DNA of 64,000 bases from Bacteroidales bacterium (GCA_017649855.1 JAGCGA010000032.1:50230-114229), one strand, 5' to 3'; shown: positions 3,537 to 55,620, numbered from the stretch's first letter. Numbers and translations are program-made. The notes: generated by a model from the letters alone, not told the origin.

Positions 3537-3575
3537 ACTAATAACTGTTAGCTAACAACTGCTAACGGTTAACTA
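3537..3575. repeat. GTTAR/CTAAC word tract abutting a stop codon
   Basis: The sequence is actaataactgttagctaacaactgctaacggttaactaag. It includes the 12-bp palindrome TGTTAGCTAACA (3546-3557) and GTTAAC. Confidence 0.85.
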
Positions 3576-4799
3576 AGCTTCGTCTATCATCTTCTTGAAG
3601 AAGGTGGCCCGTGCGGCTCCCTCGCCCGTGTTGAGGAGGACCAGTTCGCCATTGCGGATCTGTCCCTCTTCCAGGGCCTTGTAAAAGCCGGCGAAGCAGA
3701 CGATGGAGGCGGGTCCGAGGTAGATGCCGCGCTCGTCCTTGACAATCTTGCCGTAGTGTGCCAACTCGCTCTCCTTCACACGCAGGAAGGTGCCGCCGCT
3801 CTTGCGCACGATGGGTGCCACGATAGGGTACATGCCCGGGTTGCCGGCAGTGAGGATGGACACGAAGGTCTTGGGGTCTGCGATGATGGGGTAGTCCTTC
3901 TCATAACCTTCGGGGAATCCGGCCTCCACCGCTTTGGTCCAGGCCTGCACCATCGGGTCGCAGGTGTCTTGCTGGATCAGCAGCATGCGGGGCAGCTTGG
4001 TCTCCGGGAAGGTGGTCTGCAGATCACGGATGCCCTTGTCCAAGGCGATGGGACCCGTGCCACCCGCGACAGCCTGCATGTACACGTCGGGCATCTTGCC
4101 CAGCTGGCGCAAGTACTCGAACACCATGGTCTTCTTGGCTTCGACACGGATAGGATCGATGTTGCCCGTGGAGATGAGCACGTGGTTCTTTTCGTGGAAG
4201 TCGTTGGCCTCTTTCTTGGCGAATCCGTAGTTGCCGTCGCATACGATCACGGTCTGGCCGTAGGACTTGATGGCCTCCACGGTGTCCTCAATGGCATCGT
4301 GAGGCATGAAGACGGTGAACTTGATGCCGGCCTCGGCAAGATAGCGGGCGTAGGCGGTGGCCGTGTTGCCGGTCGAGGCTACACAGAACTCCTTCACACC
4401 GTTCTCCTTGAAGAGAGAGGCGGCCAAGGAGGCGGCAATGTCCTTGAAGGTGTTGCTGCCGCCGTTCAGGTCGTTGCGATAGACCATCACCTGGCAGTCG
4501 ATGCCGTATTTCTCTTTCGCTAACTTCTCCAAGAAATCCCACTCCTCGATGGGGATGGCTCCTTCGCCGAAGGAGACGATGTTCTTGGGGTCCATCACCG
4601 GCAGGAAGTCGAAATAATGGTAGAAGTTCTCGGGCTTGTGCTCCGGTTTGGTCAACTCCGTGATCTTGTGATAGTCTGCGGAATATACGACGTCAGCGCG
4701 CTTGCATCCGCATTTACACTGTTGGTTCTGAGAAAACCAAGTGGCAAAGTCGGGGATGACTTCGCCACATTGGGTACATTTCAGTTCGTATTTGTTCAT
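3573..4799 (-). CDS. PLP-dependent threonine-synthase-fold enzyme, cysteate synthase-like
   Basis: 408 aa. It has an N-terminal Cys cluster (CTQCGE...CKCGC) and an NTFKDIAAS PLP-lysine motif of fold-type II enzymes. Its size and context next to the alpha-oxoamine synthase also fit. Confidence 0.6.
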   Translation of the reverse strand: MNKYELKCTQCGEVIPDFATWFSQNQQCKCGCKRADVVYSADYHKITELTKPEHKPENFYHYFDFLPVMDPKNIVSFGEGAIPIEEWDFLEKLAKEKYGIDCQVMVYRNDLNGGSNTFKDIAASLAASLFKENGVKEFCVASTGNTATAYARYLAEAGIKFTVFMPHDAIEDTVEAIKSYGQTVIVCDGNYGFAKKEANDFHEKNHVLISTGNIDPIRVEAKKTMVFEYLRQLGKMPDVYMQAVAGGTGPIALDKGIRDLQTTFPETKLPRMLLIQQDTCDPMVQAWTKAVEAGFPEGYEKDYPIIADPKTFVSILTAGNPGMYPIVAPIVRKSGGTFLRVKESELAHYGKIVKDERGIYLGPASIVCFAGFYKALEEGQIRNGELVLLNTGEGAARATFFKKMIDEA

Positions 4800-4806
4800 G
4801 TAACTA

Positions 4807-4846
4807 TTATCTCTTAACGGTTATCTCTTAACGGTTATCTCTTAAC
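4807..4846. repeat. 3 x 14-bp tandem repeat TTATCTCTTAACGG
   Basis: Units lie at 4807-4820, 4821-4834 and 4835-4846 (the last truncated). They fill the 46-bp spacer between two co-directional biosynthetic genes. Confidence 0.9.
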
Positions 4847-6108
4847 TATTTGATCAGCGCCATGTCCGGCATGGGCTTGTCGTAGTCGCCCTTGGCCAGT
4901 CTCTCCTTGATGTCGCGGAAAGCGTTCAGGGTGTAATTCACGTCCTCCATGCTGTGGGCAGCGGTGGGGATGATGCGGAAGATGAGCATTCCCGGAGGGA
5001 TGACGGGGTAGGTGACGATGGAGCAGAAGATGTTGTAGTTCTCGCGGAGGTCAACGGCAATGTTGGCAGCCTGGTCCACACCGCAATACAAATGCACAGG
5101 GGTGACACATGCCTCTGCCGGCCCGATCTCGTAGCCGAGCTCGCGGAATCCTTTCTGCAGGGCGCGGGTGACTTCCCACAGATGGGCTCTGAGCTTGTCG
5201 CCCTCCTCGCTGCGAATGATCTCCAGACGTTTCAAGCAGCCGACCACGATGGGCATCGGGAGGGCTTTGGCATACATCTGGGAGCGCATGTTGTAACGCA
5301 GGAAGCTGATGATGCTCTTCTCGGAGGCCACGAAGCCGCCGACGGTGGCCATGGACTTGGCGTAGGCGCCGATATAGACGTCGATGTCGTCCATCACGCC
5401 GAAGTGTTCGGAGGTTCCTCTGCCGTGAGGTCCCATCACACCGAAGCCGTGGGCATCGTCAATGAGGATGCGGAACTGGTATTTCTTCTTGAGAGCCGCA
5501 ATCTGATCCAGGATGCCGAGGGCGCCCGTCATGCCGAACACGCCTTCGGTGATCAGCAGCACGCCGCCGTTCTGCTCGTCAGCCATCTTGCAAGCCTTGG
5601 CCAGCACCTTGTCACAGTCTTGGATGTCGTTGTGGCGGAATTTGATCTTCTTTCCGATATGCATGCGGATACCGTCGCGCAGACAGGCGTGGGCCTCTGC
5701 GTCATACACGATGACATCATGGGGGGATACGAGAGAATCGATGGTGGACATGATGCCCTGATAGCCGAAGTTGAACTCGAAGGCGGCCTCCTTGTGCTCA
5801 AACTCAGCTAACTCTCTTTCCAGTTGCTCGTGGAGGGCGGTTTGTCCGGTCATCATACGGCTGCCCATCGGGTAGGCCATGCCCCAGCGGGCAGCACCTT
5901 CCGCGTCAGCCTTGCGGATCTCGGGATGGTTGGCCAAACCGAGGTAGTTGTTGATACTCCAGCAAAGCACATCCTTGCCGTTGAAACGCATGTGCGGACC
6001 CAGCTCGCCTTCCAACTTCGGGAATGCGAAATAACCGTCTATCTTTTCACGATATTGTCCGATCGGACCACCGGATGATTCTTTGATTCTTTCGAAAATG
6101 TCTTTCAT
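4846..6108 (-). CDS. alpha-oxoamine synthase family acyltransferase (cysteate-C-fatty acyltransferase or serine palmitoyltransferase type)
   Basis: 420 aa. Motifs seen: DDAHGFGVMG and GAYAKSMATVGGF (PLP lysine), as in the AONS/KBL/SPT family. Confidence 0.8.
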   Translation of the reverse strand: MKDIFERIKESSGGPIGQYREKIDGYFAFPKLEGELGPHMRFNGKDVLCWSINNYLGLANHPEIRKADAEGAARWGMAYPMGSRMMTGQTALHEQLERELAEFEHKEAAFEFNFGYQGIMSTIDSLVSPHDVIVYDAEAHACLRDGIRMHIGKKIKFRHNDIQDCDKVLAKACKMADEQNGGVLLITEGVFGMTGALGILDQIAALKKKYQFRILIDDAHGFGVMGPHGRGTSEHFGVMDDIDVYIGAYAKSMATVGGFVASEKSIISFLRYNMRSQMYAKALPMPIVVGCLKRLEIIRSEEGDKLRAHLWEVTRALQKGFRELGYEIGPAEACVTPVHLYCGVDQAANIAVDLRENYNIFCSIVTYPVIPPGMLIFRIIPTAAHSMEDVNYTLNAFRDIKERLAKGDYDKPMPDMALIK

Positions 6109-6134
6109 AAGATTGGTATAATTATGGGTTAATA

Positions 6135-7640
6135 TTAATTTTTTCCTTCTTCCGCCTTCCGCTGCTCTATCTTTTCATACTCCTCGAAGAACTGCGGCAG
6201 GTTGAACATGTCGATACGCTTGTTCAAGATAATCCGATGGTCTTTGTTGTCCATCACATACATGGCTGGGTTTCCGGTCTCGTAAATGCCGAAGTAGTCC
6301 AGATAGTCCATGTTGCCTTTGTTTCCCCCTACGTTGATCCAGGGGTAGTTGTTCTCTTTTACATACTTCTTCCAAACGTTCAGATCGGCATTGTCACCGA
6401 TGGCATACACGTCGAAGTTGCGCCGACCGATGCGCTCCAAAGAGTCATACACCTGGCGGAGGTTTTTGGACTCCTTCTTGCAGGTCGGGCAGGTCGGATC
6501 ATAGAACCAAAGGACGGTGTATGGTTTGTTGGAACGGTAGGAGGATTTCCAATCGGCCGGGTTGTCCGACATGTTGGTGTCCGGGATGATGAGCTCCGGA
6601 GCGATCTTGCCAATCAAGGTGGGTTCTAACCGATTCACCCGCTTCTGGTATTTGGCCAGGATGTCCTCATCCAGCCAGTAACACTTGCCAGCCAACTGGT
6701 TGGTCTTGGCAATGTGACAGAAAACGGCGTCGTGACCGATGATTTTGTCGGTCTCGAAATTATAGGAGAGCCAATCCACACAATAGTGGTACATCAGGGT
6801 GTCCTTCTCTGTTTTCGCTAAAAACAGGTCGATGTATTTGTTGAGGGTGTCGGCTTCTGTGTGATAGATGAAATTCAGGAAGTAGTCCTTTAACTTTGGC
6901 TCAAAGGAGGGGATGTAGATGAATCGATGGTCGGCCAAGTCCACGTTGTCCCAATAGTGGTTCTTGTAGTAGTAGTTCTGCGCCACGCGGTCAATCTCCC
7001 CAGTCTCTGTTTTGAACTCCGGCACATCGACGGCTTGGTAAGACTTCTGCATCTTGGAGAAAAGATAGTTGGGATGCTTGGCGATGATCTCGTCGTTGAT
7101 GAAGTGCATCATCTCGTCGTTGAGGCTGACAAGCTTTTGCTGGTAGTAGTCGGCACTGTCTTTCAGCCCGCTTTCTTCGAAGGCTTTGCGCTTCTTTCCC
7201 CAGTCGCTGGCCAACCTCTGGGCCTGGGTGGTCTTGCGCTGGAACTTCAGCATCTCCTCGTTCTCCGGGGAGTTCTTGGTGTAGAAGTTGTCCACATTGC
7301 CCGTGGTGTCCAGATAGTATTCAAAAAACTGGTTATTGTCGATGATAAAGTTGAGGTACAACTTCTTCTTCTCCGAAACCAAGGAATACATGCCATCATC
7401 GTAGGGCTTCTCTCCCTTGAACACAAATAGCCCGGGGGAAACCGGCGGCAGAGAGTCCTTGATGATCAGCTTGTCGTTGTAGTGGATGACCAGATACAGC
7501 AGTTTGTCAGGCGAGTCTTTGATGTGGAAAATAAGCTCGTGACCTTTTTTCGGTACGACATTTTTGCCTCTCTGAGCTTGGAGCTGGCTCAGTGAGAGTA
7601 CCATGATGAAACCTACGAATAAAAGTATCAGTTTTCTCAT
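6135..7640 (-). CDS. thioredoxin-fold (TlpA/AhpC-like) secreted thiol-disulfide oxidoreductase
   Basis: 501 aa. It has a signal peptide (MRKLILLFVGFIMVLSLSQLQAQ) and a WFYDPTCPTCKKE CxxC motif in the C-terminal domain. Confidence 0.75.
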   Translation of the reverse strand: MRKLILLFVGFIMVLSLSQLQAQRGKNVVPKKGHELIFHIKDSPDKLLYLVIHYNDKLIIKDSLPPVSPGLFVFKGEKPYDDGMYSLVSEKKKLYLNFIIDNNQFFEYYLDTTGNVDNFYTKNSPENEEMLKFQRKTTQAQRLASDWGKKRKAFEESGLKDSADYYQQKLVSLNDEMMHFINDEIIAKHPNYLFSKMQKSYQAVDVPEFKTETGEIDRVAQNYYYKNHYWDNVDLADHRFIYIPSFEPKLKDYFLNFIYHTEADTLNKYIDLFLAKTEKDTLMYHYCVDWLSYNFETDKIIGHDAVFCHIAKTNQLAGKCYWLDEDILAKYQKRVNRLEPTLIGKIAPELIIPDTNMSDNPADWKSSYRSNKPYTVLWFYDPTCPTCKKESKNLRQVYDSLERIGRRNFDVYAIGDNADLNVWKKYVKENNYPWINVGGNKGNMDYLDYFGIYETGNPAMYVMDNKDHRIILNKRIDMFNLPQFFEEYEKIEQRKAEEGKN

Positions 7641-8936: not shown

Positions 8937-10327
8937 TGGGTAATCTTCTTGATGAAAGTCATGATTTCGGAAGCCAAGGCCTCGGCTTCGGCTTCGGTGG
9001 CGGCTTCCGTGTAGATGCGGATGATGGGCTCGGTGTTGGAACTGCGGATGTGCGCCCAACTCTTGGCGAAGTCGATCTTCACCCCGTCGATGCGGGAGAC
9101 GGACTCGTCGGCGTAGTGCTGTGCGACAGCGTCCAGGATGCTGGGCACCGACATGGTGGGGTCGAGCTCTATCTTGTTCTTGGAGATGTGATAGTCAGGG
9201 TATTTCCGGCGCAGCTCCGAGCACTTGCATCTCTCGACGGCCAGATGCGACAGGAACAGGGCGATGCCCACGAGCGCGTCGCGGCCGTAGTGCAGGGCAG
9301 GGTAGATGACGCCTCCATTGCCTTCGCCGCCGATGATGGCGCCCGTCTCTTTCATCTTCTCCACCACATTGACCTCACCCACGGCGGCGGCGCTGTAGCT
9401 GACGCCATGCCATCCGCTCACGTCACGCAACGCGCGCGAGGAGGAGAGGTTGGAGACGGTGTTGCCCTTCTCGTGCTTCAGGATGTAGTCGGCAACGGCC
9501 ACGAGGGTGTACTCCTCGCCGAACATGGTGCCGTCTTCCTGCAGGATGGCTAAGCGGTCTACGTCGGGATCCACCACGAAGCCCACATCGAAACGACCCT
9601 CTTGACGCATCACCCCTGCGATGCCGGTCAGGTTCTCAGGAATGGGCTCCGGCGTGTGCGCGAAGATACCGTTGGCCTCGCCGTTGAGAACGGTCACGTC
9701 GGTGACACCCAGCTGCTCCAATAGCGGGGGCAAGGCTAATGCGCCCGTGGAGTTGATGGTGTCCAATACAACTCGGAAGTTCGCTTTTGCTATGGCATCC
9801 CTGTTGACCAAAGGAAGCGCCAAGATGGCGTCGATATGATGCTGGATGGTGTCGTCAACTTTTTGATATTTACCCAGATGGGAGATGTCGGCATAGCCCA
9901 CATGGTCTAACTGTGCCGCAAGCTCCAAGAGGTGCCGGCCTTCAGCGGCGGAGATGAACTCGCCCTTCGCATTGAGCAGTTTGAGCGCATTCCACTGCAT
10001 CGGGTTGTGGCTGGCGGTGATGATGATGCCGCCGTCGGCTCCGTATTGCGTCACGGCCATCTCGGTGGTCGGGGTGGTGCTCAGACCGGTGTCTATGACA
10101 TCCACGCCCATGCTTTGCAGGGTGCCGCATACTAACGTGCTGACCATCTGGCCGGATACGCGGGCGTCGCGCCCCACGACCATCGTCAGTTTCTCTTTCT
10201 TCGTCTGCTCTTTAATCAGGATGGAAAAGGCGGTGGTCAGTTCCATGATGTCAGCGGGCGTGAGGTTGTCCCCGCATCGGCCCCCGATGGTGCCGCGAAT
10301 GCCTGAAATGGATTTGATGAGTGCCAT
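8933..10327 (-). CDS. glmM: phosphoglucosamine mutase
   Basis: 464 aa. Motifs seen: SGIRGTIGG and the TASHNP phosphoserine loop. Length is typical of alpha-D-phosphohexomutases. Confidence 0.85.
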   Translation of the reverse strand: MALIKSISGIRGTIGGRCGDNLTPADIMELTTAFSILIKEQTKKEKLTMVVGRDARVSGQMVSTLVCGTLQSMGVDVIDTGLSTTPTTEMAVTQYGADGGIIITASHNPMQWNALKLLNAKGEFISAAEGRHLLELAAQLDHVGYADISHLGKYQKVDDTIQHHIDAILALPLVNRDAIAKANFRVVLDTINSTGALALPPLLEQLGVTDVTVLNGEANGIFAHTPEPIPENLTGIAGVMRQEGRFDVGFVVDPDVDRLAILQEDGTMFGEEYTLVAVADYILKHEKGNTVSNLSSSRALRDVSGWHGVSYSAAAVGEVNVVEKMKETGAIIGGEGNGGVIYPALHYGRDALVGIALFLSHLAVERCKCSELRRKYPDYHISKNKIELDPTMSVPSILDAVAQHYADESVSRIDGVKIDFAKSWAHIRSSNTEPIIRIYTEAATEAEAEALASEIMTFIKKITQ

Positions 10328-10522: not shown

Positions 10523-11881
10523 ATGAACCCTAAAAACTACATTGAAGAAAATCAGAAACGCTTTTTGGAAGAGCTTTTCACCCTTTTGCGTATCCCCTCC
10601 ATCAGCTCGGAGAGCGAACACAAACCCGATATGATCCGCTGTGCGGAACGCTGGCGCGAGCTGATCCTGGCCGCCGGTGCCGACAAGTGCGAGGTGATGC
10701 CCGCCGAGGGCAACCCCATCGTCTATGGCGAGAAGATCATCGACCCCGCCGCCAAGACGGTCCTCGTCTATGGCCACTATGACGTGATGCCCGTGGACCC
10801 CATCGAGCTGTGGAACACCGAACCCTTCGAGCCGGTCATCAAGGACGGCAAGATCTGGGGCCGCGGCGCCGACGACGACAAGGGCCAGTCCTTTATGCAC
10901 GCCAAAGCATTCGAGACGATGATGCAGACCAATACACTGCCCTGCAACGTGAAGTTCATGCTTGAGGGCGAAGAGGAGATCGGCTCCCCGAGTCTCTCCA
11001 AGTGGATTGTGGAAAACAAGGACCTCGTCAAGGCAGATGTGATCCTCGTCTCCGACACGAGCATGATCGCTTCCGATGTGCCCTCCATCACCACGGGCCT
11101 GCGCGGCTTGTCCTATTGGGAAATCGAGGTGACGGGCCCGAACGCGGACCTGCACTCCGGCATCTTCGGTGGCTCGGTGGCCAACCCGCTGAACACCCTC
11201 TGCGAGATGATCGCCCAATGCATGGACGAGAACAACCACATCACCATCCCGCACTTCTATGACGACGTGGTGGAGTGCTCCGACCGTGAGCGCGAGCTGC
11301 TCAATATGGCTCCGTATGATGAGGAGGAATACAAGAAGTCGCTCGGCGTGAAGGCGTTGCGCGGCGAGAAGGGCTACACCAAGATCGAGCACGTGGGCAT
11401 CCGTCCTACCTTCGACCTCTGCGGTATGTGGGGTGGCTACACGGCTGAAGGCTCCAAGACTGTCCTGCCCTCCAAGGCTTATGCCAAACTGTCCTGCCGA
11501 CTGGTGCCCAACCAAGACCACGAGAAGATCGCCGATCTGGTGAAGAACTATTTCGAGCAGAATGCCCCCGACTATGTGACGGTGAAGGTGACCTCTCTGC
11601 ACGGTGGTCAGGCTTACGGTTGCCCGACCGACCATCCGGCCTATAAGGCTGCGGAGGCTGCCTATATGGACACCTACGGCAAACTGCCCATCCCGATGCG
11701 CAGCGGTGGCAGCATCCCGATTATCGCCACTTTCGAGAAGGTGCTCGGCATCAAGTCCATCCTGATGGGCTTCGGCCTCGGCGAGGATGCCATCCACTCA
11801 CCCAACGAGAACTACCGTCTGGATCATTTCTACAAGGGCATCGAGACCATCTGCGCCTTCTACAAACACATCGCAGAGTAA
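10523..11881 (+). CDS. M20 family dipeptidase/metallopeptidase
   Basis: 452 aa. Motifs seen: HYDVMPVD, GRGADDDKGQ and EGEEEIGSP, the metal-ligand motifs of M20/ArgE/DapE enzymes. Confidence 0.85.
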   Translation: MNPKNYIEENQKRFLEELFTLLRIPSISSESEHKPDMIRCAERWRELILAAGADKCEVMPAEGNPIVYGEKIIDPAAKTVLVYGHYDVMPVDPIELWNTEPFEPVIKDGKIWGRGADDDKGQSFMHAKAFETMMQTNTLPCNVKFMLEGEEEIGSPSLSKWIVENKDLVKADVILVSDTSMIASDVPSITTGLRGLSYWEIEVTGPNADLHSGIFGGSVANPLNTLCEMIAQCMDENNHITIPHFYDDVVECSDRERELLNMAPYDEEEYKKSLGVKALRGEKGYTKIEHVGIRPTFDLCGMWGGYTAEGSKTVLPSKAYAKLSCRLVPNQDHEKIADLVKNYFEQNAPDYVTVKVTSLHGGQAYGCPTDHPAYKAAEAAYMDTYGKLPIPMRSGGSIPIIATFEKVLGIKSILMGFGLGEDAIHSPNENYRLDHFYKGIETICAFYKHIAE

Positions 11882-12574: not shown

Positions 12575-14284
12575 TCACTCTTTTGTCAGATACATCACCA
12601 TCCGTCCGGATTCGTACAATTCTATGGTAATATGGTGGTACGACCACTTCAGATATTTGATTTCCTCATCTGATTTGACAGGCTCTTTGCCGGTCAAGCG
12701 AGTCAGAATTTGGCGTACTTGCGAATGTTTTTTCCCCACATTGTCTATACTTCCAGAACTGCGCCAGGACGAGTTATACACATTGGTCTTTATCCACTCA
12801 AAAAATGCGCCCATGACCATAGAATCGCTTTTATGCACACAATAGTCCACAGATAAGGTCTTTTTAGCATCGATTACGGTATAATAGCTGTATTTTTCAT
12901 ACTCGCCTGTTTGATATTCGTCAGGATAATAATACTTGTCCAAAGCTTGGAACTCACCTTGGCAAGTGGCCTGTAACGACTTCTCCACGCTGTCTGTCTG
13001 GGAAAGCGTCAGATGGTCAAGATGATTCAGGAGAAATTGGAGCAATGGTTCGATGTTGTCTGTGCCTATATGAGGCAGAGAATCCTGATTGTGGATAATG
13101 TGGCAGATGTGGATGAGCGTATCCTGGATTTCCAACACTCCGTAGGAATTCTTATCCTCCTCGAATTGCAAAAAGCATTGGTTTGGAGCTGGATTTTTAC
13201 CTCTGAAGCAATCGTGCCATTGAAAAAAACTGTATGGATGCCCTAAATCGAATTTTTCAATCAGTTTTCCGTTTTCGAGTTGGGCGATGTATGTTTTCTC
13301 CTTTGAATTGATCAGGTAGTAAATATTCCCATTTGTCAAGAATGCGTCTGACAATACTGTGTCGTATGTTATTCCGCCCCACCAATTGCCCTCATCATAT
13401 CTGCCTGTGAATTGGAAAAGAGTAGGGACAGGTTTGACATTGATGCCGCCGGAGCGATAAAGGCTTTCTAAAAAAGCGTGTTCGTCTGCAGAAGCATCTT
13501 CGTATGTAAAGCCCTTTTCACATAATTGTGTTTTCCCTTCCAAGGAAATCAAGGTGTCCACTTTGCTGACCCGAATGAAATAATAGACATTGTCTTTTTT
13601 GATGATGCGCGACAATCCTCTAGGCATAAGGTGCTGGGGGAAATATTCTTTAACTCCAGGATAGGAAGGTTTTATAGTAACAGAGGAACTGCTTTCCCAA
13701 ATGTCCGTGCTCACTTCTTGCGTGTTCTGCAGAACGTCAAGGTGTGACGCTGTTTTATCTATAAACCAGGTGTATTCTCCCCATTCACCAATGTCAACGA
13801 ATGCAACGCTGTATAGGTCATCCTCATATATTACATTGGAGATCACTTCAACGGGTTCCCAATGCCAAGCAGCCATATCAAAATAATAGCCGTCCTGTTC
13901 ATTGCGAAGATGGTATGGCCTTAGGAAGAGCGTGTCGTGTCGCGTAAAAAGGTCGCCATAATAGTTTCTTTGAAAATCTTTGGGCAAACTTACCTCTCTA
14001 ATCTCATTTCCATCTTCTGAAATGACGAGCAGTCGGTTTTTCCATAGCCAATGGTCATAGACTTGTGTGTTTTTGAAAATACAGAAATAATAGCCGTGAT
14101 ATTTGGCGGCCCATTTCATTGTGAAATCCGAAATCGGGCTTATGAAATCAGAGGCGTTAATCCGTAACGTGTCCTCCACCACCCGGAACTGCTGCGCGTA
14201 TGAGGCGAAAGACAGCGCGAGGAATACGATGAGCCATTTCAAGCGTTTCATTTTTCCGATATATAGCGACTTCTGTGTATTCAC
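12575..14284 (-). CDS. hypothetical secreted protein (visibly AT-richer than its surroundings)
   Basis: 569-aa ORF. A signal peptide begins at the internal MKRLKWLIVFLALSFASYAQ, so the start may be 14251. I recognised no family motif. Confidence 0.6.
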   Translation of the reverse strand: MNTQKSLYIGKMKRLKWLIVFLALSFASYAQQFRVVEDTLRINASDFISPISDFTMKWAAKYHGYYFCIFKNTQVYDHWLWKNRLLVISEDGNEIREVSLPKDFQRNYYGDLFTRHDTLFLRPYHLRNEQDGYYFDMAAWHWEPVEVISNVIYEDDLYSVAFVDIGEWGEYTWFIDKTASHLDVLQNTQEVSTDIWESSSSVTIKPSYPGVKEYFPQHLMPRGLSRIIKKDNVYYFIRVSKVDTLISLEGKTQLCEKGFTYEDASADEHAFLESLYRSGGINVKPVPTLFQFTGRYDEGNWWGGITYDTVLSDAFLTNGNIYYLINSKEKTYIAQLENGKLIEKFDLGHPYSFFQWHDCFRGKNPAPNQCFLQFEEDKNSYGVLEIQDTLIHICHIIHNQDSLPHIGTDNIEPLLQFLLNHLDHLTLSQTDSVEKSLQATCQGEFQALDKYYYPDEYQTGEYEKYSYYTVIDAKKTLSVDYCVHKSDSMVMGAFFEWIKTNVYNSSWRSSGSIDNVGKKHSQVRQILTRLTGKEPVKSDEEIKYLKWSYHHITIELYESGRMVMYLTKE

Positions 14285-14456: not shown

Positions 14457-14464
14457 ATCTCAAG

Positions 14465-14852
14465 TGGAGCCGGAGGGAGTCGAACCCTCGTCCAAACTAG
14501 CCGCAAGATTGCTTTCTACAAGTTTAGTCTTCGTTTGATTGTCGGCGACGGCATGGTACGAGACGGACCTGGCCGCCGCTTATCTCCTGAAGTTTCGCGC
14601 CTGCTGCGGAGCCAGCATTTGCTATCTGTCCTTTTATGACACTTCGGACCGGACGTTGGACGGAAGAACTTCCGGGGAAGCGCCCGCGGCAACAGACCTT
14701 GTCTGGGCGGCGGGATCCGCGGCCGTTAGGCTGCGAATGCATAAGAAGTTTCGCCGTTTATTGGCATCGAGAGTTGAATGTTAACGGAATTGGCTCACAA
14801 TTTCCGACCTGCTTACAATCCCCCGAACTTGCTGTCAAAACCAAACGACCCC
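14465..14852 (-). ncRNA. ssrA: transfer-messenger RNA (tmRNA)
   Basis: The 5' end GGGGUCGUUUGG pairs with the 3' end CCGGCUCCA, including a G3:U pair. A T-arm GGGUUCGACUCCC is present. The tag ORF GGC GAA ACU UCU UAU GCA UUC GCA GCC UAA (GETSYAFAA*) lies at 14726-14755. Confidence 0.9.
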
Positions 14853-34876: not shown

Positions 34877-34924
34877 TTAAACTTGTCAGTTAGGAGTTGT
34901 GGCAAATAGCGTCAATACTGAGGG

Positions 34925-34980
34925 TTAAGAAACTAAGAAATTAAGAAACTAAGAAATTAAGAAACTAAGAAGTTAAGAGA
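34925..34980. repeat. 7 x 8-bp tandem words (TTAAGAAA/CTAAGAAA)
   Basis: Read directly: ttaagaaa ctaagaaa ttaagaaa ctaagaaa ttaagaaa ctaagaag ttaagaga. The last unit forms an 8-bp stem, CTAAGAAG (34965-34972) with CTTCTTAG (34987-34994). Confidence 0.9.
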
Positions 34981-35048
34981 GTTTAGCTTCTTAGCTCCTT
35001 CATGGGTCACTCCAAAAGCCTTGGAACGAGAAATTGCGAGGTGATTGT

Positions 35049-35074
35049 CAAAGTCAAAGTTCAAAGTCAAAGTT
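35049..35074. repeat. CAAAGTY word tract (caaagtcaaagttcaaagtcaaagtt)
   Basis: Read directly. The same word string recurs at 43152, 55433, 55523 and 55606. Confidence 0.9.
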
Positions 35075-35315: not shown

Positions 35316-35344
35316 GCTCGATAGGTTCTTTGTCTTGGATGGGT

Positions 35345-35370: not shown

Positions 35371-35440
35371 CAGGGGGTCCCCGTTAATCGTCTTGCCGCT
35401 CGTTTTCTTTCAAACTGCGAGGATGCAGTCTGCTCCGTTT

Positions 35441-35473
35441 CGCTAACTCCCAACTGACAACTCTTAACTGCTC
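35441..35473. repeat. AGTTAR word tract with GGGAGTTAG head (minus sense)
   Basis: The minus-sense sequence is GAGCAGTTAAGAGTTGTCAGTTGGGAGTTAGCG, immediately 3' of the C69 peptidase stop. Confidence 0.8.
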
Positions 35474-37072: not shown

Positions 37073-37101
37073 AATATTTCAAATTTTCTACAGACATGAA
37101 A

Positions 37102-37214
37102 CCCCTACGGGGCTGCTCAAGGAATAACTATCATCTATTATCTATTAGCTATTATCTATCATCTGTTATTCTACCCAGCTCTTGCCCCTGCGGGGCTGCT
37201 CAAGGAATAACTAT
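37102..37214. repeat. two copies of a 30-bp module CCCCT(A/G)CGGGGCTGCTCAAGGAATAACTAT, 83 bp apart
   Basis: Copies at 37102-37131 and 37185-37214 match at 29 of 30 positions. Each carries a CCCC-N3-GGGG hairpin and is followed by a period-7/8 word tract. Confidence 0.9.
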
Positions 37215-37251
37215 TAACTATTAACTTTTAACTCTTAACTCTAACTCCCCC

Positions 37252-39717
37252 TCATTCCTCTCCTCCATCCTCATTCTCTCCGCTCCGGCTCTTGGACTCC
37301 AGTTCCATCTTGCCAAAACGGAAGGTGATGCCTGCCGAGATGAAGCGGCTGTTGCGCTTGGTTGTCGAGGTAGAGATGAGGTACGGGTTGTTATTCTGGC
37401 TGGTTGTCTTGTTCCAGTTGAAGATGTCTTTCACGTCGAGATGCACCGAGATCTTGCGGTCGAGGAAACTGGCGCGGAGGCCGGCGTCGATGGAGTAGCG
37501 TGGCTTGGTGGTGGTGAACAGGGAGATGCTCTTGGAGCGGTAGTTCGCGGAGGCGAAGACCTCCAGCACCTTCCACAGCTTGGCCCAGTAGTTGATGCGG
37601 AAGCTGTAACCCAGGTTGGAGAACTCGCGAGGGTCGCTCTCGTTGCGGAACCGGTAGAGCGAGTGGTCGTAGTAAACGTTGCCGTAGAAACGGATGCTCA
37701 TGAAGGCCTTGAGCCGGTAGGTGACGTTGACCTCGGCGCCGGTGTTGAGCGACTTGCCCGCGTTGACGGGCATGGAGAAGGAGACGATGCGTCCGAAGAA
37801 GTCGCTGTATGCCACATCGCTGAGCGAGGAGATCTGCCTGTCGCTGTTGCGGAAGTAGGCGGTGACGCCCACAGAGCCGAACTTCTTGAAGAACTTGGTC
37901 CAGCCGGCCTCTACCATGTTGGTGTAGGAGGGCAGCAGGAGCGGGTTGCCCGTGGAGTAGCTCTCTTCACCGTAGTTGATGAAGGTCGAGAGTTGCGAGG
38001 CCGAGGGGGTCCGCACGCGCCGCGTGTAGCTGAGCTTCAGGTTGTGCATGCTCTTGGTGCGGTAGGTCAGGTGCAGGGAGGGGTATAGGTTCCAGTAGGT
38101 CTTGCTGACGTTGTCCTTGGGTGAGTTGAGCAGGTCGTAGCGGTAGTTGTTCACTTCCGAGCGGAGGCCCGCCTTGATGGTGAAGCCGCCGAACTTATGC
38201 TGGATGGTCACGTACTGGCCGGAGCCGAAGTTTTGGTTGCGGGAATCGACAAAGCGGATGGAGTCCAGGACAAACAGATCGTCAGACAGATAGACGAGCG
38301 TATCTTCACGGGAGGTGTTTCCGCCTCTTCCGTAGTTGCCGCTGATGCCCATCGAGATCTCCCCGTTCTTGTGATAGGGGATGGTATAGTCCACACTCGC
38401 ATTGAAACTATAGTTGAATAACTTGACAGTGTCAAAGCAGTACTTGTCCAGATAGTCTTGTGTGAGATAGTCGCGGAAGCTGTGCGATTTGGTGCTGCCG
38501 GCGTTGAAGTTGGTGTTCAGGCTGGCGTCTATCTGGTGTCCCTCCTGGTTGAACTTGTGGCGGAACCAGATGCCGCCGTAGCCGTTGGCACTTAACGATC
38601 TGCTCTCCCCATCATAACCATAGTCGAAAAGTTCTGCTTCGCGATCATCTTCGGGGTACATCTCATAGCGCATCTGGTGTGCAGTGCTGAAACTCCATCG
38701 ACGGTTAGGATGGGTGCCGAGCCAGAAACTCAGCGAGTTGGAGCTGTCGATGGTGTAGGAGCCGTTGAAATGGATGTTGCCATTGATATTGCGGTTCCGG
38801 TTGAAGGTGGTGTCTATCTGGATGCTGGCCGTGTCAAGATCCTTGTTCAGACGGGTCAGATGGCTGTGACTGTTGGTGCGGTTGGCAGCATAGCTGGCGT
38901 TGACGTAGAGGCTGAGGGACAGCTTCTTGTTGGCCCAGACGTATGAAAACCAGGGTGACACGTTGGGGCGTGAGGAGCCGTTGATGCCGAAGCTGATGAA
39001 CTGGTTCTTCTGGATGGCGGCGGTGGTGACGATGTTGATGATGCCGCCGTCGGTGTTGGCGCCGTACTTGGCTGAGGGGTTGGTGATGACCTCAATGCGT
39101 TCGATGCTGTTGGCGGGCATCTGCTGGATGAACTCCTTGAGGGTCTCCGCGGTGAGGTTGGAGGGCTTGTCGTTGAGCCATATCTCCACGGAAGAGACGC
39201 CGCGCAGGGTGATGTTGCCTTCGATGTCAACCTCCACGCCCGGGGCATTCTGCAGGGCGTCGGCGGCGGTGCCCGTCTGCACCATCGGGTCCTCCGACAC
39301 ATTATAGAGCGTCTTCTCACCCTCCATCATGTAGACTGGCTTCTCGGCGGTGACACTCACCTCGCCCAGCATGGTCGCGGCCTTGTGCAGCCAGATGTTC
39401 CCTAGCTGGATGTTGCGGTCACTGCCTCCGACAGTCACGGGGACAGTCTTCAGCTCGTAGCCCACCAGCATGACTTTCAAAAAATAGTTGCCCGCGGGGA
39501 TGTCCTCCAGCAGAAAACGACCGTTGGTTTCGGAGTAGGTGACGGCCACATTGCGCATGGAAGAGTCCGTGGTGGTGAGGCCTACCGTGGCGTAAAAGAT
39601 CTTCTGCCCATTGGCGGTGTCGCAGACCACTCCTTGCAGGCGGTAGTTCTGAGCCGACAAAGTCTGAAGGAGTCCTGCCAGCAGGGCGAATATAAGGTAT
39701 ATCCTAAATTTCTTCAT
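37252..39717 (-). CDS. TonB-dependent receptor with N-terminal carboxypeptidase-regulatory-like domain
   Basis: 821 aa with a signal peptide. It has a CarboxypepD_reg-like start (YRLQGVVCD), a plug motif (ALQNAPGVEVD) and a C-terminal beta-barrel ending ITFRFG. Confidence 0.85.
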   Translation of the reverse strand: MKKFRIYLIFALLAGLLQTLSAQNYRLQGVVCDTANGQKIFYATVGLTTTDSSMRNVAVTYSETNGRFLLEDIPAGNYFLKVMLVGYELKTVPVTVGGSDRNIQLGNIWLHKAATMLGEVSVTAEKPVYMMEGEKTLYNVSEDPMVQTGTAADALQNAPGVEVDIEGNITLRGVSSVEIWLNDKPSNLTAETLKEFIQQMPANSIERIEVITNPSAKYGANTDGGIINIVTTAAIQKNQFISFGINGSSRPNVSPWFSYVWANKKLSLSLYVNASYAANRTNSHSHLTRLNKDLDTASIQIDTTFNRNRNINGNIHFNGSYTIDSSNSLSFWLGTHPNRRWSFSTAHQMRYEMYPEDDREAELFDYGYDGESRSLSANGYGGIWFRHKFNQEGHQIDASLNTNFNAGSTKSHSFRDYLTQDYLDKYCFDTVKLFNYSFNASVDYTIPYHKNGEISMGISGNYGRGGNTSREDTLVYLSDDLFVLDSIRFVDSRNQNFGSGQYVTIQHKFGGFTIKAGLRSEVNNYRYDLLNSPKDNVSKTYWNLYPSLHLTYRTKSMHNLKLSYTRRVRTPSASQLSTFINYGEESYSTGNPLLLPSYTNMVEAGWTKFFKKFGSVGVTAYFRNSDRQISSLSDVAYSDFFGRIVSFSMPVNAGKSLNTGAEVNVTYRLKAFMSIRFYGNVYYDHSLYRFRNESDPREFSNLGYSFRINYWAKLWKVLEVFASANYRSKSISLFTTTKPRYSIDAGLRASFLDRKISVHLDVKDIFNWNKTTSQNNNPYLISTSTTKRNSRFISAGITFRFGKMELESKSRSGENEDGGEE

Positions 39718-39786: not shown

Positions 39787-39867
39787 GCGGATGTGGCGTA
39801 ATGGTAGCCGCGCCAGACTTAGGATCTGGTGGCGAGAGCCGTGGGGGTTCGAGTCCCCCCATCCGCA
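39787..39867 (+). tRNA. tRNA-Leu (anticodon UAG)
   Basis: Manual cloverleaf. The acceptor stem is GCGGATG/CATCCGC. The anticodon stem CCAGA/TCTGG has loop CTTAGGA. There is a long variable arm (GGC-GAGA-GCC) and a T-arm GGGGG-TTCGAGT-CCCCC. CCA is not encoded. Confidence 0.9.
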
Positions 39868-39892
39868 CTTCACGTTCCCATAATCCAACATA

Positions 39893-42326: not shown

Positions 42327-43145
42327 ATGAAATTATCATCCATAAAGAAAGGTTTTAAGGCGTTGGGGCTGGTCTGCCGGCATCCATATCTGCTGAATGC
42401 TGTCGTCAACGATGAGGGCGTGCGCCACGAGGAGGTGGTGAAGCGATATGGGCTGCAGGACGGATTGCCCGTGGTGGAGATCCAGAAGTTGTTTCCAGAC
42501 TTCTCCGAGAGGGTGTCCCCGTATGCCTATCTCTCCGGAGCGACCATGCCCATTGACCTGGCACTGCTTCGGATGCTGGCGCGGCGCCAAGGGGTGCGCG
42601 ACTACTTCGAGATTGGCACGTGGCGCGGGGAGAGTGCCGCCAATATGGCCGCTGTGGCCGAACACTGCACCACCTTCAATCTGCCCAAAGAGAAGATCGT
42701 GGAACTGACCCACAACGAACGCTACGCCGACCTCCATGGCTTCTTCTCCCAGAAGCTTCCGAATGTGACCCATCTTTATGGCGACTCGCAGACCTTTGAT
42801 TTCACCCCCTATCACCAGGCTTTTGACATGGTCTTCATTGATGGGGACCATCATTACGAGGCAGTGAAGAGGGACACCGAGACCGCCTTTCAGCTGTTGC
42901 GCGATGATCATTCAGTGATTGTATGGCACGACTATGCGCTGGATCCTGAAACTGTCCGCTGGAACGTGCTGCTGGCCATTCTGGACGGCGCCCCCGCCGA
43001 CAAGCGCAAAAATCTGTACCATGTCTCCAACACGCTCTGTGCCGTCTATATCCCTGAAGATCTTCCGACGGGGCCGCTGATGCCATACGAAAAGCCTCAG
43101 AAATATTTTGATGTGACCATCGAATCGCATCCCTGCCAATCATAA
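42327..43145 (+). CDS. class I SAM-dependent methyltransferase
   Basis: 272 aa. Motifs seen: EIGTWRGES and FIDGDHHYEAV. Confidence 0.7.
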   Translation: MKLSSIKKGFKALGLVCRHPYLLNAVVNDEGVRHEEVVKRYGLQDGLPVVEIQKLFPDFSERVSPYAYLSGATMPIDLALLRMLARRQGVRDYFEIGTWRGESAANMAAVAEHCTTFNLPKEKIVELTHNERYADLHGFFSQKLPNVTHLYGDSQTFDFTPYHQAFDMVFIDGDHHYEAVKRDTETAFQLLRDDHSVIVWHDYALDPETVRWNVLLAILDGAPADKRKNLYHVSNTLCAVYIPEDLPTGPLMPYEKPQKYFDVTIESHPCQS

Positions 43146-43151: not shown

Positions 43152-43166
43152 CAAAGTCAAAGTTCA
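43152..43166. repeat. CAAAGTCAAAGTTCA word motif copy
   Basis: Read directly in the 41-bp spacer after the methyltransferase stop. Confidence 0.8.
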
Positions 43167-43186
43167 GATTATAGTTTTCTCTGCTC

Positions 43187-53541: not shown

Positions 53542-53877
53542 CTATTGTTTCAGCAGTTCGTCAATGTGTTCGATATAGTCCAAGGTGTCGTCCAGGAAGA
53601 ACTCCAGCTGAGGCACTACGCGCAACTGGTTGCGGATGCGCTGCCCCAAGCGGAAACGGATGTCCTTGGTGTTGGCGCGCACCGCAGCCACGATGGCCTC
53701 TTTGTCAGGCGCCATATAGACGCTCAAATAGGCCCTCGCAATGGAAAGGTCAGACGTGATGGTCGTCTTCGTCACCGTGATGAGGCAGTTGTAAATGTTT
53801 CGACCGTCGGCTACAAAGATGTTGGCCAACTCTTTTTGCAATAATGCTGCTATCTTATTCTGTCTTGTCGTATTCAT
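53542..53877 (-). CDS. rbfA: ribosome-binding factor A
   Basis: The start is moved to MNTTRQNKIAALLQKELANIF (ATG 53875-53877), giving 111 aa. The upstream part of the 221-aa ORF is non-coding-like. Confidence 0.85.
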   Translation of the reverse strand: MNTTRQNKIAALLQKELANIFVADGRNIYNCLITVTKTTITSDLSIARAYLSVYMAPDKEAIVAAVRANTKDIRFRLGQRIRNQLRVVPQLEFFLDDTLDYIEHIDELLKQ

Positions 53878-53908
53878 ACTAAAATATCCTATCGTGATAA
53901 TCAGGCGG

Positions 53909-53916
53909 CAAAGATA
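53909..53916 (-). promoter_or_regulatory. -7 type promoter box TATCTTTG
   Basis: Exact TAnnTTTG on the minus strand, 32 nt upstream of the rbfA ATG. Confidence 0.5.
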
Positions 53917-53940
53917 CGCATTTTGTTGGAAATAGCGATT

Positions 53941-53990
53941 AGGAGTTGTTGGGTGGGAGGTGAGGGAGTTAGAAGTTAGGCAAAGTGAGA
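53941..53990. repeat. word tract with GGGAGTTAG head (plus sense)
   Basis: The sequence is aggagttgttgggtgggaggtgagggagttagaagttaggcaaagtgaga. It overlaps the end of the RT fragment. Confidence 0.75.
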
Positions 53991-54331
53991 CTAATTGTTT
54001 TGAAGCCAACGATACTTGGCTTGTCACGATGCCATCCCGAATTGCCCCGGAGAGGCGTGATCTCAATAACCCCAGACAAATGGTGAACGATGTGATCGCG
54101 AGAATCGGCAGCGAATACTTCTCTTTTCTTCGGGCCGGTAATGATGAAGCAAGTAGAAGATTTTGGAGAGTAGGTTCGTGTGTAGAGTTCATTACACAAC
54201 GTATCAAAATTATTCCTCAAGTCGGTTTCAAACCTTTGCTGATAAAGTTTGAATCGTTTGTGGCGGCGAGCATCAAGCCAAGCCTGACTCAGGCGGCCGT
54301 TGTCCTCTTGGGTGTGTGGGGGCGGAACAAG
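53969..54331 (-). pseudogene. reverse transcriptase N-terminal fragment (DGR/retron-type RT remnant)
   Basis: The frame reads ...GRLSQAWLDARRHKRFKLYQQRFETDLRNNFDTLCNELYTRTYSPKSSTCFIITGPKKREVFAADSRDHIVHHL... This matches the xNLxxAxxxxxxxKR / Y.P / PKKRE.F.A..RD.IVHH pattern of RT domains 0-2. There is no ATG or GTG start. Similarity ends after HHL, and motifs 3-7 (YxDD) are absent. Confidence 0.6.
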
Positions 54332-54333
54332 GG

Positions 54334-55065
54334 TTAGTGCTGACTGGCACGCACCGCACGCACAGGATATCCCTCATAGCGGTAGCTGGCGGAGGCGTAC
54401 ATGCCCTCGCGACCCGAGCTGAATCCGAAGGCCCACGCGAGCCCCGGGTAGTCCAGGTACAGCGCACTCGACCAGTAGAAGCCGAACTCACCCGTGCCAT
54501 CGATACTCGGGCCGAAGGGGGCGCCGGCAGCGGGCAGGAAGAGGCTCTTACCATTGGATCCGGTCAGAAGGTGGCCGTTAACCCCATTTAGAACAATCCA
54601 AATGCTGGTAGTGTAGTCTATCAACTCTTCCCACTCGTTTTTAGTCGGTGTGCGGGCTCCACCGCCAAGGTTAGCCGTGGCGGCATCGTCAGAGGCCTGA
54701 AGGATGGTCTGGTTGTCTGTAAAGCCGTTAAGACCGTATGAAGCCTTATTGCAGTATTTAGTGAGCTTACCGTCGTCATTGCCGAATGCGTAGGTGCTCC
54801 AGCTATAGACATTCTTCGGGGTGGTCTCGCCCCAAGCGTAATAATTACCATAGTCCTCGAGGGCGCTGGCACCCACATTCCGATCTGCCCACAAGAGACC
54901 GCTCGGCAACCCGAGGTCAACCCAAACAACAGAAGACGAGTTGCCGCCATTATTGCCACCATTGTTGCCGCCATTGTTGTCGCCATTGTTGTCTTCTCTG
55001 TCGCAGGACTGTAGCCCCACACCTAACAGAATTGCAACCATAAAAAATAAAACTGATCTTTTCAT
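54334..55065 (-). CDS. lipoprotein with lectin-like FISUMP/DUF1566-type domain (DGR-target-like C-terminus)
   Basis: 243 aa with a lipobox (GLQSC) and an (NNGG)n linker. Motifs seen: GLPSGLLWADRNVGA, YYAWGE, PTKNEWEEL, LPAAG and GFYWSS. It ends YEGYPVRAVRASQH. Confidence 0.7.
   Translation of the reverse strand: MKRSVLFFMVAILLGVGLQSCDREDNNGDNNGGNNGGNNGGNSSSVVWVDLGLPSGLLWADRNVGASALEDYGNYYAWGETTPKNVYSWSTYAFGNDDGKLTKYCNKASYGLNGFTDNQTILQASDDAATANLGGGARTPTKNEWEELIDYTTSIWIVLNGVNGHLLTGSNGKSLFLPAAGAPFGPSIDGTGEFGFYWSSALYLDYPGLAWAFGFSSGREGMYASASYRYEGYPVRAVRASQH
54943..54990. repeat. 4 x 12-bp coding tandem repeat (GCCNCCATTRTT), encoding the NNGG linker
   Basis: Read directly: gccgccattatt gccaccattgtt gccgccattgtt gtcgccattgtt. 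Confidence 0.9.
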
Positions 55066-55260
55066 CGCAAAATATGTCCGAGGACCTCGGTTTTCTCTTA
55101 ATCATGACGTTCTCATACCCTGCGAGGTCCTTTGAACAGGATATGGGAAAACATCGCTGCAAATATATAAATATTTTACAAATGTACAAATATTTTATTG
55201 ATTATATTGTTTATTTATTAATAAAGTGAAATTTTTTGTGAGAATAACCGAAGTTTCGTT

Positions 55261-55268
55261 TATTTTTG
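55261..55268 (+). promoter_or_regulatory. orphan -7 type promoter box TATTTTTG
   Basis: Exact TAnnTTTG with no annotated gene downstream. A GC-rich ~100-nt segment follows, then the repeat tracts. Confidence 0.35.
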
Positions 55269-55370
55269 CAGGCATGTCGGAGGTGTGCGGGGGACGACAC
55301 GATGGGCGAGCGGCCGTTTGCGGATAACGCGTGCAGATGGGCGGAATCCCCGTGAATGGCGGGGGCGATT

Positions 55371-55620
55371 GGGAGTTAGATAATAGTTAATAGTTATGGG
55401 TAGTTCGGGGCTAATGGCTAATAGCAAACGGCCAAAGTTCAAAGTTCAATGTCAAGGTTAGGAGGTTAAAAGGTTAATAGGTTAAGCGGTTAGAAGGTTA
55501 ACGGGTTAATGGGTTAATGGGTTCAAAGTCAAAGTTCAAAGTTCAATCTCAAGGTCATGGTTTTGACGGCCAACAGCTAACAGCTAACGGCTAACAGCTA
55601 ACAGCCAAAGTTCAAAGTTT
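55371..55620. repeat. composite array of short-period word repeats
   Basis: The array starts with the head GGGAGTTAG at 55371. AGGTTAnn repeats 8 times (period 8) at 55455-55518. TAACAGC repeats 5 times (period 7) at 55571-55605. CAAAGTY tracts start at 55433, 55523 and 55606. A 26-bp direct repeat CAAAGTTCAAAGTTCAAT(G/C)TCAAGGT occurs at 55433 and 55530. Confidence 0.9.

Follow-up and report, generated by a model that had tools for sequence, protein, structure and literature searches.

Heptamer and octamer repeat tracts at stop codons in the intergenic DNA of an uncultured rumen Bacteroidales lineage

Knowledge of intergenic heptamer arrays dates back to the short tandemly repeated repetitive (STRR) sequences of cyanobacteria, and heptamers are the dominant class of long simple-sequence repeat (SSR) in many bacteria, with slippage as their proposed origin (Mrazek et al. 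2007, as summarized in PMC4679880 and PMC4692102). Here we analyse such arrays in a 64 kb stretch of DNA from an uncultured Bacteroidales bacterium (the window, which throughout denotes this whole stretch). Its lineage carries them at very high density: direct reading of the gaps between genes reveals eleven tract segments in eight gaps, ~630 nt in total, which by segment coordinates amount to ~11% of the intergenic DNA of the window, and in tract-bearing relatives 27–31% of gaps hold a tract. Variation across rumen metagenomes reveals two simple rules, namely that the tracts are anchored at stop codons and that their G-rich, C-poor strand is the sense strand.

Prokaryotic long SSRs are composed of tandem units of 5–11 nt, heptamers being commonest; units that are not multiples of three are intergenic, and the distribution is patchy (PMC4679880, PMC4692102). 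The tracts presented here are alike in these respects, but 8-nt units make up about one third of their arrays, which combine many related words into mosaics. The uncultured rumen Bacteroidales lineage is not among the lineages described, and neither stop anchoring nor a rule of G over C on the sense strand appears in the passages of this literature that were consulted. Lineage, share of 8-nt units, mosaic vocabulary and the quantified stop anchoring and strand rule are what is specific to this case.

Direct repeats of TAACTGA occur in Beggiatoaceae, Cyanobacteria and five Bacteroidetes (MacGregor 2015, PMC4679880). Among the latter is a member of the Bacteroidales, Paludibacter, and Gramella, Aequorivita and Elizabethkingia carry other heptamer repeats beside TAACTGA; these intergenic arrays provide a Bacteroidota precedent, of which a preliminary description of the window, made from its sequence, knew none. 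According to the same paper, some TAACTGA arrays overlap upstream stop codons and close three frames in one orientation. The tracts analysed here resemble them in being intergenic heptamer arrays, in closing three frames in one orientation and in overlapping, in some cases, the upstream stop. However, the Beggiatoaceae genome is described there as having one dominant word, just upstream of starts and in one orientation, whereas here there are many words, stop anchoring and no excess at starts. In the window, TAACTGA itself is found as 2 isolated copies (4.9 expected), none of them tandem; its reverse complement, TCAGTTA, belongs to the NNNAGTT type of word seen here (gtcagttagg).

The cyanobacterial STRR heptamers (PMC2670836) and the GGGAATC arrays of Xanthomonas and GGGGA(C/T)T arrays of Nostoc (PMC4692102) are likewise 7-bp intergenic units that are found between the same gene pairs in relatives and vary extensively in length and sequence, with occasional inversion. 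They are G-runs with G-quadruplex potential or have a few species-specific units, whereas the tracts analysed here are A/T-rich and diverse in vocabulary, and their predicted folding is weak.

The tracts are long simple-sequence repeats

The comparison was built on the C69 peptidase encoded at 35474–37072, relatives of which were found in 80 species-level genomes, nearly all of them metagenome-assembled genomes of rumen or gut Bacteroidales (best relative, 97% identical); look-ups with exact proteins returned the source contig alone. Together, the window and the 80 loci comprise 1.22 Mb of coding sequence and 0.13 Mb of intergenic DNA; some counts were made on a larger set composed of the window and 160 related loci, with 195 tracts. 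Tracts were detected with Tandem Repeats Finder and a simple period detector, both of which recover the tracts of the window as arrays of period 6–8. Across the window and the 80 loci, period-7 arrays reach 713 per Mb in intergenic DNA versus 9.9 per Mb in coding DNA (94 versus 12 arrays) and period-8 arrays 326 versus 1.6 per Mb (43 versus 2 arrays), the coding DNA being 9 times larger; intergenic density exceeds coding density ~70–200-fold. In the period detector, periods 5, 10 and 11 are near zero and periods 6 and 9 are minor. After merging, the same detector yields 137 intergenic tracts of 18 to 212 nt, among which there are at least 97 distinct exactly doubled units, and it finds no tracts at all in many of the distant relatives among the 80 loci.

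The period profile, the confinement to intergenic DNA and the diversity of the units identify the tracts as long SSRs of the heptamer/octamer class. They combine a short tandem unit, exclusion from coding DNA of units that are not multiples of three and change of copy number by whole units. This identification is much firmer than the explanation of their origin that we propose below.

No family in Rfam 15 corresponds to the tracts at either gathering or relaxed thresholds; in the window, only tmRNA and tRNA are matched, a search of 34850–37300 at E ≤ 5 returned nothing meaningful, and on ten related loci only tRNA, 5S rRNA and DUF805b were found. The predicted folding energy of the tracts is −0.075 kcal/mol per nt, compared with −0.143 kcal/mol per nt for other intergenic DNA.

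As a separate observation, some palindromic tetramers are scarce in the 195 tracts of the larger set (GTAC 0, CATG 1, CTAG 1 and TCGA 2, with 12 expected for each) and AGCT is enriched (26 versus 12 expected); the null used here ignores dinucleotide frequencies, and the tetramer biases may be genome-wide.

Tracts change by whole units and diversify in place

One relative, L002, has 93% nucleotide identity with the window. Within tracts, the only differences between the two are exact insertions or deletions of 16-nt and 13-nt units between nearly identical flanks. In the alignment, tract D2 (34925..34978, plus strand; TTAAGAAA/CTAAGAAA, 6.8 copies of an 8-nt unit by Tandem Repeats Finder) is shorter in L002 by one 16-nt double unit, and tract D3 (35047..35074, plus strand; GTCAAA/GTTCAAA units, recovered by Tandem Repeats Finder and, through the word CAAAGTCAAAGTTCA that it includes, by word count) is shorter by one 13-nt double unit. 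In the gap between the genes for a TonB-dependent receptor and the C69 peptidase, different words are found in the window and in four relatives (L001, L002, L004 and L005). Tract I is ~250 nt long in the window, ~30 nt in L082 and ~70 nt in L090, next to a Band-7 protein that is 96–97% identical, and copy number varies among L092, L093 and L095. Finally, blocks that are neighbours in a tract lie at a mean cyclic edit distance of 1.56, compared with 3.54 for random pairs of blocks; this similarity between neighbours is a signature of slippage, point mutation and re-expansion.

The non-repeat block between D2 and D3 (34979–35046) has a single mismatch with L002, and its flanking genes are only ~93% identical; it could be a conserved element of the 3′ untranslated region, a terminator or a small RNA.

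Fast turnover by whole-unit insertions and deletions is also what purely neutral junk microsatellites would show, arising by slippage in unconstrained DNA with no selection on position, orientation or content. The very broad vocabulary, with its 97 units, fits such an origin, and so does the similar frequency of tracts in all types of gap: 31% of gaps between convergent genes contain one, as do 27% of the divergent and 27% of the co-directional gaps, and a preference for convergent gaps or operon ends, which the preliminary description had put forward for checking, is not seen.

Tracts cluster just past stop codons, where their sense strand is G-rich

Of 86 co-directional gaps with a single tract, 38 have their tract beginning no more than 5 nt past the upstream stop codon, compared with 13.1 expected under uniform placement (z = 9.6). 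The link to gene 3′ ends that had been suspected from the window is thereby upheld. On the start-codon side of these gaps there is no excess (23 versus 19.4 expected). Of 63 stop-abutting tracts, 25 include the stop codon in the repeat, as the opening triplet of their first unit.

Stop-abutting tracts have more G than C on the sense strand of the preceding gene in a ratio of 48:12 (33:9 in co-directional and 15:3 in convergent gaps). The ratio is 17:1 after orthologous sites are collapsed and 35:3 where the stop codon lies outside the repeat, and it fades to 15:10 for tracts at 6–25 nt from the stop. Ordinary post-stop DNA is unskewed (G 0.20, C 0.21). For replication, we used an independent set of viral contigs retrieved with heptamer words, leaving tracts of the query words out of the strand test; stop-abutting tracts again follow the rule (46:20, p = 0.002). 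Tracts abutting start codons contain 9% G and 38% A, similar to ordinary pre-start DNA (12–14% G), and stop- and start-abutting tracts are opposite in composition (Mann–Whitney p = 0.0013).

In the window, six of six post-stop segments lie directly after the stop: 3531–3572, 4800–4845, 34877–34902, 35443–35473, 37209–37251 and the spacer holding 43152–43176. Five of them have more G than C on the sense strand, the exception being the last (the spacer of tract G), which in addition borders on a start codon.

Stop-abutting tracts are rich in further stop codons. In 48% of them, compared with 3% of controls, none of the three frames stays open beyond 30 nt from the stop; the sense strand closes more frames than the antisense strand in 22 tracts and fewer in 8; and the next in-frame stop follows at a median of 7 codons with a tract and 15 codons without. 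A buffer against one recoded stop is unsupported, the next in-frame stop being of a different type in 28 of 46 cases with a tract and 123 of 202 without.

Slippage and selection at the mRNA level as the probable origin of the tracts

We consider it somewhat probable that the tracts are spacers made by slippage and shaped by selection at the level of the mRNA. Replication slippage would build 7- and 8-nt arrays in the non-coding spacers of this lineage, and a mutated unit would re-expand, giving rise to composite arrays of closely related words; motifs shared between tracts would then be a reused vocabulary rather than copies of a mobile element. Selection on the mRNA may filter which arrays persist and where. 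Arrays just past stops would accumulate when their sense strand is G-rich and C-poor with stops in three frames, those abutting start codons when G-poor and A-rich, and the net result would be a weakly folding, stop-rich spacer, the length of which drifts quickly. Slippage as the generating process, selection as the reason for the strand bias and any advantage to the cell are what we infer from the comparisons between sequences; the repeat anatomy, the unit-sized changes, the diversification in place, the stop anchoring, the strand rule with its replication and the weak predicted folding are observed.

Several points weigh against this explanation. Both slippage and selection are read from comparisons; the stretches compared span ~2–64 kb per genome, those from relatives ~2–22 kb; and genes were called by a crude longest-open-reading-frame rule, with start codons especially uncertain. 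Taken together, the tracts show no preferred orientation with respect to transcription (GC skew 44:40, per-word families, within-locus consistency), which is also what neutral microsatellites would show, and an orientation signal emerged only once tracts were split by their distance from stop and start codons. Compared with shuffled versions of themselves, the tracts are not less structured (mean z = −0.67), and their weak predicted folding is due to base composition, not base arrangement. The G>C excess remains outside stop triplets (717 G versus 297 C); stop codons alone are thus insufficient to account for the strand rule, and a sense-strand stop-codon guard as its sole cause is ruled out. 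Lastly, the comparisons do not tell a DNA-level cause, filtered according to position, from a genuine function of the RNA.

Purely neutral origin nevertheless appears to us unlikely. It does not account for the anchoring at stops (38 versus 13.1), for a sense-strand rule that is missing from ordinary post-stop DNA and fades within 6–25 nt, for the replication of that rule in viral contigs or for the opposite compositions of stop- and start-abutting tracts.

If mRNA-level selection does act on these spacers, two reasons for avoiding C after stops can be imagined, both speculative: the sense transcript may thereby escape loading of Rho, or a C-rich loading site for Rho may be created on antisense transcripts reading in from downstream. 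A stronger version, which we regard as distinctly unlikely, holds that the stop-anchored, strand-biased arrays are selected devices, acting as an unstructured pad with stops in three frames on the sense strand and as a Rho loading site on the antisense strand. Were it true, the pad would limit read-through and frameshift products, and the C-rich, G-poor antisense strand would load Rho on transcripts entering from downstream while the sense strand stays refractory to Rho. Gut phages recode stop codons with suppressor tRNAs (10.1101/2021.08.26.457843; PMC9523058), and such a pad could matter in their hosts. On this view, the recurrence of the rule in viral contigs would point to a general solution in this host–virus community, and might explain the heptamer repeats of other phyla. 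The two rules, stop anchoring and strand, make orientation-swap experiments on the function of heptamer arrays feasible.

A reused vocabulary of words

Some words recur between tracts of the window. In counts against 100 dinucleotide shuffles of the window, the 9-mer GGGAGTTAG was found 4 times (35443–35451, minus; 37241–37249, minus; 53964–53972, plus; 55371–55379, plus) with 0.31 expected, and none of the 100 shuffles reached 4. CAAAGTCAAAGTTCA was found 3 times (35049, 43152 and 55524; 0.00 expected), as was CAAAGTTCAAAGTT (55433, 55530 and 55606; 0.01 expected). The excess over chance that had been claimed for these words therefore holds at the scale of the window, as do the positions of GGGAGTTAG; for CAAAGTCAAAGTTCA, the first two positions stand and the third is to be moved by one base, from 55523 to 55524. 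The three positions of CAAAGTTCAAAGTT are right, but all lie within one array (55433–55619) and are thus tandem rather than dispersed copies. The copy of GGGAGTTAG next to the TonB-dependent receptor gene begins 2 nt past the TGA stop (TGA GG GGGAGTTAG), not 1 nt as first described.

All four copies of GGGAGTTAG are intergenic, as had been claimed, and the copies of CAAAGTCAAAGTTCA likewise. The copy at 53964 falls within a mechanically called open reading frame of 221 residues (53542–54207, minus strand), of which only residues 115–219 form the RbfA domain; in the gene calls of the source contig, rbfA occupies 53542–53877. The reading frame thus over-extends rbfA, and the tract-bearing gap upstream is non-coding. 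Tracts can mislead gene callers in this way; they can also break short-read assemblies and could serve as strain-level markers.

Words are shared more often within a locus than between loci: identical units are shared by 3.3% of tract pairs within a locus and 0.4% between loci, and 9-mers by 14.5% and 3.9%, respectively. The dispersed family of the preliminary description is real in so far as the tracts form a non-random dispersed class, with some words reused between unlinked tracts of one genome; its members are not copies of a mobile element, and a fixed head motif common to the tracts is unsupported.

The words could in principle form a sequence-specific platform, a constant core with variable spacers recognized by an RNA- or DNA-binding protein specific to the lineage, which would control translation or the fate of the mRNA. 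TRAP and HutP sites would be analogues, and a regulator has been proposed for the TAACTGA and Nostoc heptamers. Constant cores with variable positions do exist here (for example NNNAGTT and NNGGTTAA), and words are reused within a genome. One clade-specific array, (AATTCAR)2–4, is invariant and precedes the start codon by 0–3 nt in at least three different genes across six species; it is the only array here to be placed at start codons in the manner of the TAACTGA family. Its heptamer is that of (TTCAAAA)3 upstream of Nostoc genes, and in Nostoc deletion of heptamer repeats altered the regulation of a reporter (10.1101/2022.06.06.494920). Yet there are at least 97 units, orthologous sites differ in words between relatives at 93% nucleotide identity, no word family has an orientation bias, and no candidate binding protein was identified. 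In 18 qualifying arrays, none of them from the window, the variable positions of the units were not clumped into core and spacer beyond chance. Compared with TRAP and HutP sites, the cores differ between tracts, word families occur in both orientations, and no terminator logic is apparent beside the tracts, GC-rich hairpins not being enriched. A binding platform is, on this evidence, quite improbable as a general explanation.

The (AATTCAR)2–4 sites are at 10694 in L034; 8060 and 9980 in L036; 9987 and 11714 in L038; 9974 in L040; 9980 in L041; and 4981 and 6715 in L042. The array is always in sense orientation, 0–3 nt upstream of the ATG, and the surrounding non-coding DNA varies across the six species; its unit is a rotation of that in the (TTCAAAA)3 found upstream of genes in Nostoc PCC 7120.

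In the viral contigs, exact triple heptamers of TAACTGA occur in 107 stretches, of CAAAGTT in 38, of AGTTAAG in 21, and of two controls, AAGTGTA and AGACATT, in 22 and 2; with counts ranging from 107 to 2, the frequency of triple heptamers depends on the word. That the words of the window are globally special was rejected, the composition-matched control (AAGTGTA)3 being as common as (AGTTAAG)3, a result that a neutral origin would also give. Contigs found through one heptamer word typically hold several other intergenic heptamer tracts (L163, L165, L185 and others), and some are of ~62–63% G+C, so that not all are likely to be Bacteroidales phages.

Tract I and the question of phase variation

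The longest tract of the window, tract I (55367..55619, plus strand), is a composite array of ~250 nt that was delineated by Tandem Repeats Finder, word counts and sequence. Its blocks are, in order, AATAGTT, GGCTAAT, CAAAGTT, NNGGTTAA (9 units of 8 nt), CAAAGT(T), AACAGCT and CAAAGTT. The array stops at an A/T run and a TATATTTTTG box before the Band-7 gene (55683–56510), a putative promoter of that gene by the promoter consensus.

A heptamer SSR precedes hmw1A of Haemophilus, an example of a phase-variable gene, and the tracts might similarly be contingency loci in which copy number switches or tunes a neighbouring gene. Near-identical strains do differ in copy number beside promoters and 5′ regions, and tract I ends at the putative Band-7 promoter. 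However, it lies upstream of the putative promoter boxes (assigned by the same consensus) and not between them; tracts occupy 27–31% of all gaps, including the spacers of housekeeping operons and post-stop sites; and the flanking genes are not enriched for surface or virulence functions. In general, tracts sit after stops, in operon spacers or upstream of a putative promoter. We consider phase variation very improbable as their role.

Two further features are seen at this site. A GC-rich stretch of ~100 nt (55270–55366) lies just upstream of tract I and is without counterpart in L082 and L090, and a 10-nt inverted repeat (55312–55321 and 55424–55433), which may be due to chance, brackets the first part of the tract.

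Hairpin modules and palindromes near the tracts

The repetitive extragenic palindromic (REP) sequences and bacterial interspersed mosaic elements (BIMEs) of enterobacteria consist of imperfectly palindromic units that fold into stem-loops and share a conserved consensus. The tracts resemble them in being dispersed and intergenic, often at gene 3′ ends or in operons, but are direct repeats without self-complementarity. The preliminary description had proposed a REP/BIME-like or other miniature element family, and dispersal is a point in its favour, as are the presence of REP-like palindromes, GTAGAGACG...CGTCTCTAC, in the same genomes and the juxtaposition of a tract, seen independently at least 8 times, with a dispersed hairpin module, TTCCTTGAGCAG-CCYCGNAGRGG. 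Within the tracts, however, there are neither inverted repeats nor palindromic units, and neither length nor ends are conserved; in place of a consensus there are 97 distinct units and differing words at orthologous sites, and the predicted folding energy is half that of other intergenic DNA. As for miniature inverted-repeat transposable elements (MITEs), terminal inverted repeats are absent and length is not fixed (18–212 nt); target-site duplications were not looked for separately. The tracts change by whole-unit insertions and deletions and match nothing in Rfam. A general association with GC-rich hairpins or REP-like modules was not seen, such hairpins being present in 27% of gaps with a tract and 28% of gaps without. 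Given the lack of inverted repeats and fixed ends, the weak predicted folding and the lack of association with hairpins, we reject the REP/BIME or MITE reading, to which we give hardly any credence.

The hairpin module has the consensus TTCCTTGAGCAG-CCYCG(N)AGRGG-CAAGA... and is dispersed and intergenic, lying between co-directional genes of unrelated function; it has no Rfam match. A long form of ~80 nt contains three hairpins with loops of the C-GAA-G type and two base pairs with compensatory changes. In the at least 8 independent cases above, the word tract lies against its 5′ side. Two copies, ATTCCTTGAGCAGCCCCG(Y)AGGGG, are present in the window (37185–37208 and 37102–37125, minus strand), where they bound tracts F1 and F2 and are not themselves tracts. 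Among the related loci, the module is found in L030 (~13040–13131, minus), L083 (1089–1185 and 2631–2725), L085 (~7025–7121, minus), L088 (8538–8630 and, minus, 595–685), L023 (225–315), L094 (4478–4570, minus), L005 (~16255, minus), L015 (~4555), L092 (~2852) and L122 (~702, minus).

REP-like perfect palindromes of the form GTAGAGACG(N8–10)CGTCTCTAC occur in many loci, for example at 4437 and 9850 in L010, 9877 in L014, 17037 in L024 and 98 in L042. GTAGAGACG has 66 matches on both strands of the window and the 160 related loci, each palindrome being counted twice. A palindrome of the window at 35344–35371, TTAGAGACGTTCCATGGAACGTCTCTAC, has arms of 13 nt and lacks a loop. A second, clade-specific module, ATGCGGTGGAACCG...CGCATAGCCCGAAGGGCGGGATAGTGAC, occupies successive operon spacers of L036 (~9910–9975 and ~11660–11700), with equivalents in L038 and L042; it is flanked by GGTTAGT/GGTCAGT tracts upstream and an AATTCAR tract downstream.

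Other tracts and features of the window

Tracts A and B lie on either side of a gene for a pyridoxal phosphate (PLP)-dependent enzyme (3573–4799, minus strand; Pfam). Tract A (3531..3572, minus strand; sense TTAACCGTTAGCAGTTGTTAGCTAACAGTTATTAGTTTTGAC, from sequence) begins with the base that follows the TAG stop of this gene (3573–3575). Tract B (4800..4845, minus strand) consists of three copies of TTAAGAGATAACCG, a 14-nt unit made of two 7-mers (Tandem Repeats Finder: period 14, 2.9 copies, 100% match), and occupies the entire spacer between the TAG stop of an aminotransferase gene (4846–4848; Pfam) and the ATG of the next gene (4797–4799).

Tract D1 (34877..34902, plus strand; TTAAACTTGTCAGTTAGGAGTTGTGG) abuts the TAG stop of a NamZ-like gene (33629–34876; sequence and Pfam), and its sense strand is G-rich and C-poor. 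Tract E (35443..35473, minus strand; GAGCAGTTAAGAGTTGTCAGTTGGGAGTTAG) abuts the TAA stop (35474–35476) of the C69 peptidase gene and has a copy of GGGAGTTAG at its end; at the orthologous site, L002 and L005 also have a tract. Tract F1 (37209..37251, minus strand) reads GGGGGAGTTAG AGTTAAG AGTTAAA AGTTAAT AGTTAAT AGTT, without any C on the sense strand, and abuts the TGA stop (37252–37254) of the gene for the TonB-dependent receptor (37252–39717, minus strand; Pfam). Tract F2 (37126..37164, minus strand) has period 7 in Tandem Repeats Finder, reads AGATGAT AGATAAT AGCTAAT AGATAAT AGATGAT AGTT and lies between the two copies of the hairpin module.

Tract G (43152..43176, plus strand; CAAAGTCAAAGTTCAGATTATAGTT, from sequence and Pfam) lies in a 41-nt spacer between the stop of a methyltransferase gene (43143–43145) and the ATG of a glycosyltransferase gene at 43187. 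Tract H (53937..53980, plus strand; GATTAGGAGTTGTTGGGTGGGAGGTGAGGGAGTTAGAAGTTAGG), in the gap upstream of rbfA (minus strand), is composed of degenerate NNNAGTT units.

Beyond the tracts, the window encodes a protein of 3279 residues (23718–33557, plus strand) that combines a GEVED domain with a C-terminal sorting domain for type IX secretion, a tmRNA (14462–14852, minus strand) with the tag GETSYAFAA, and a tRNA-Leu (39787–39868, plus strand).

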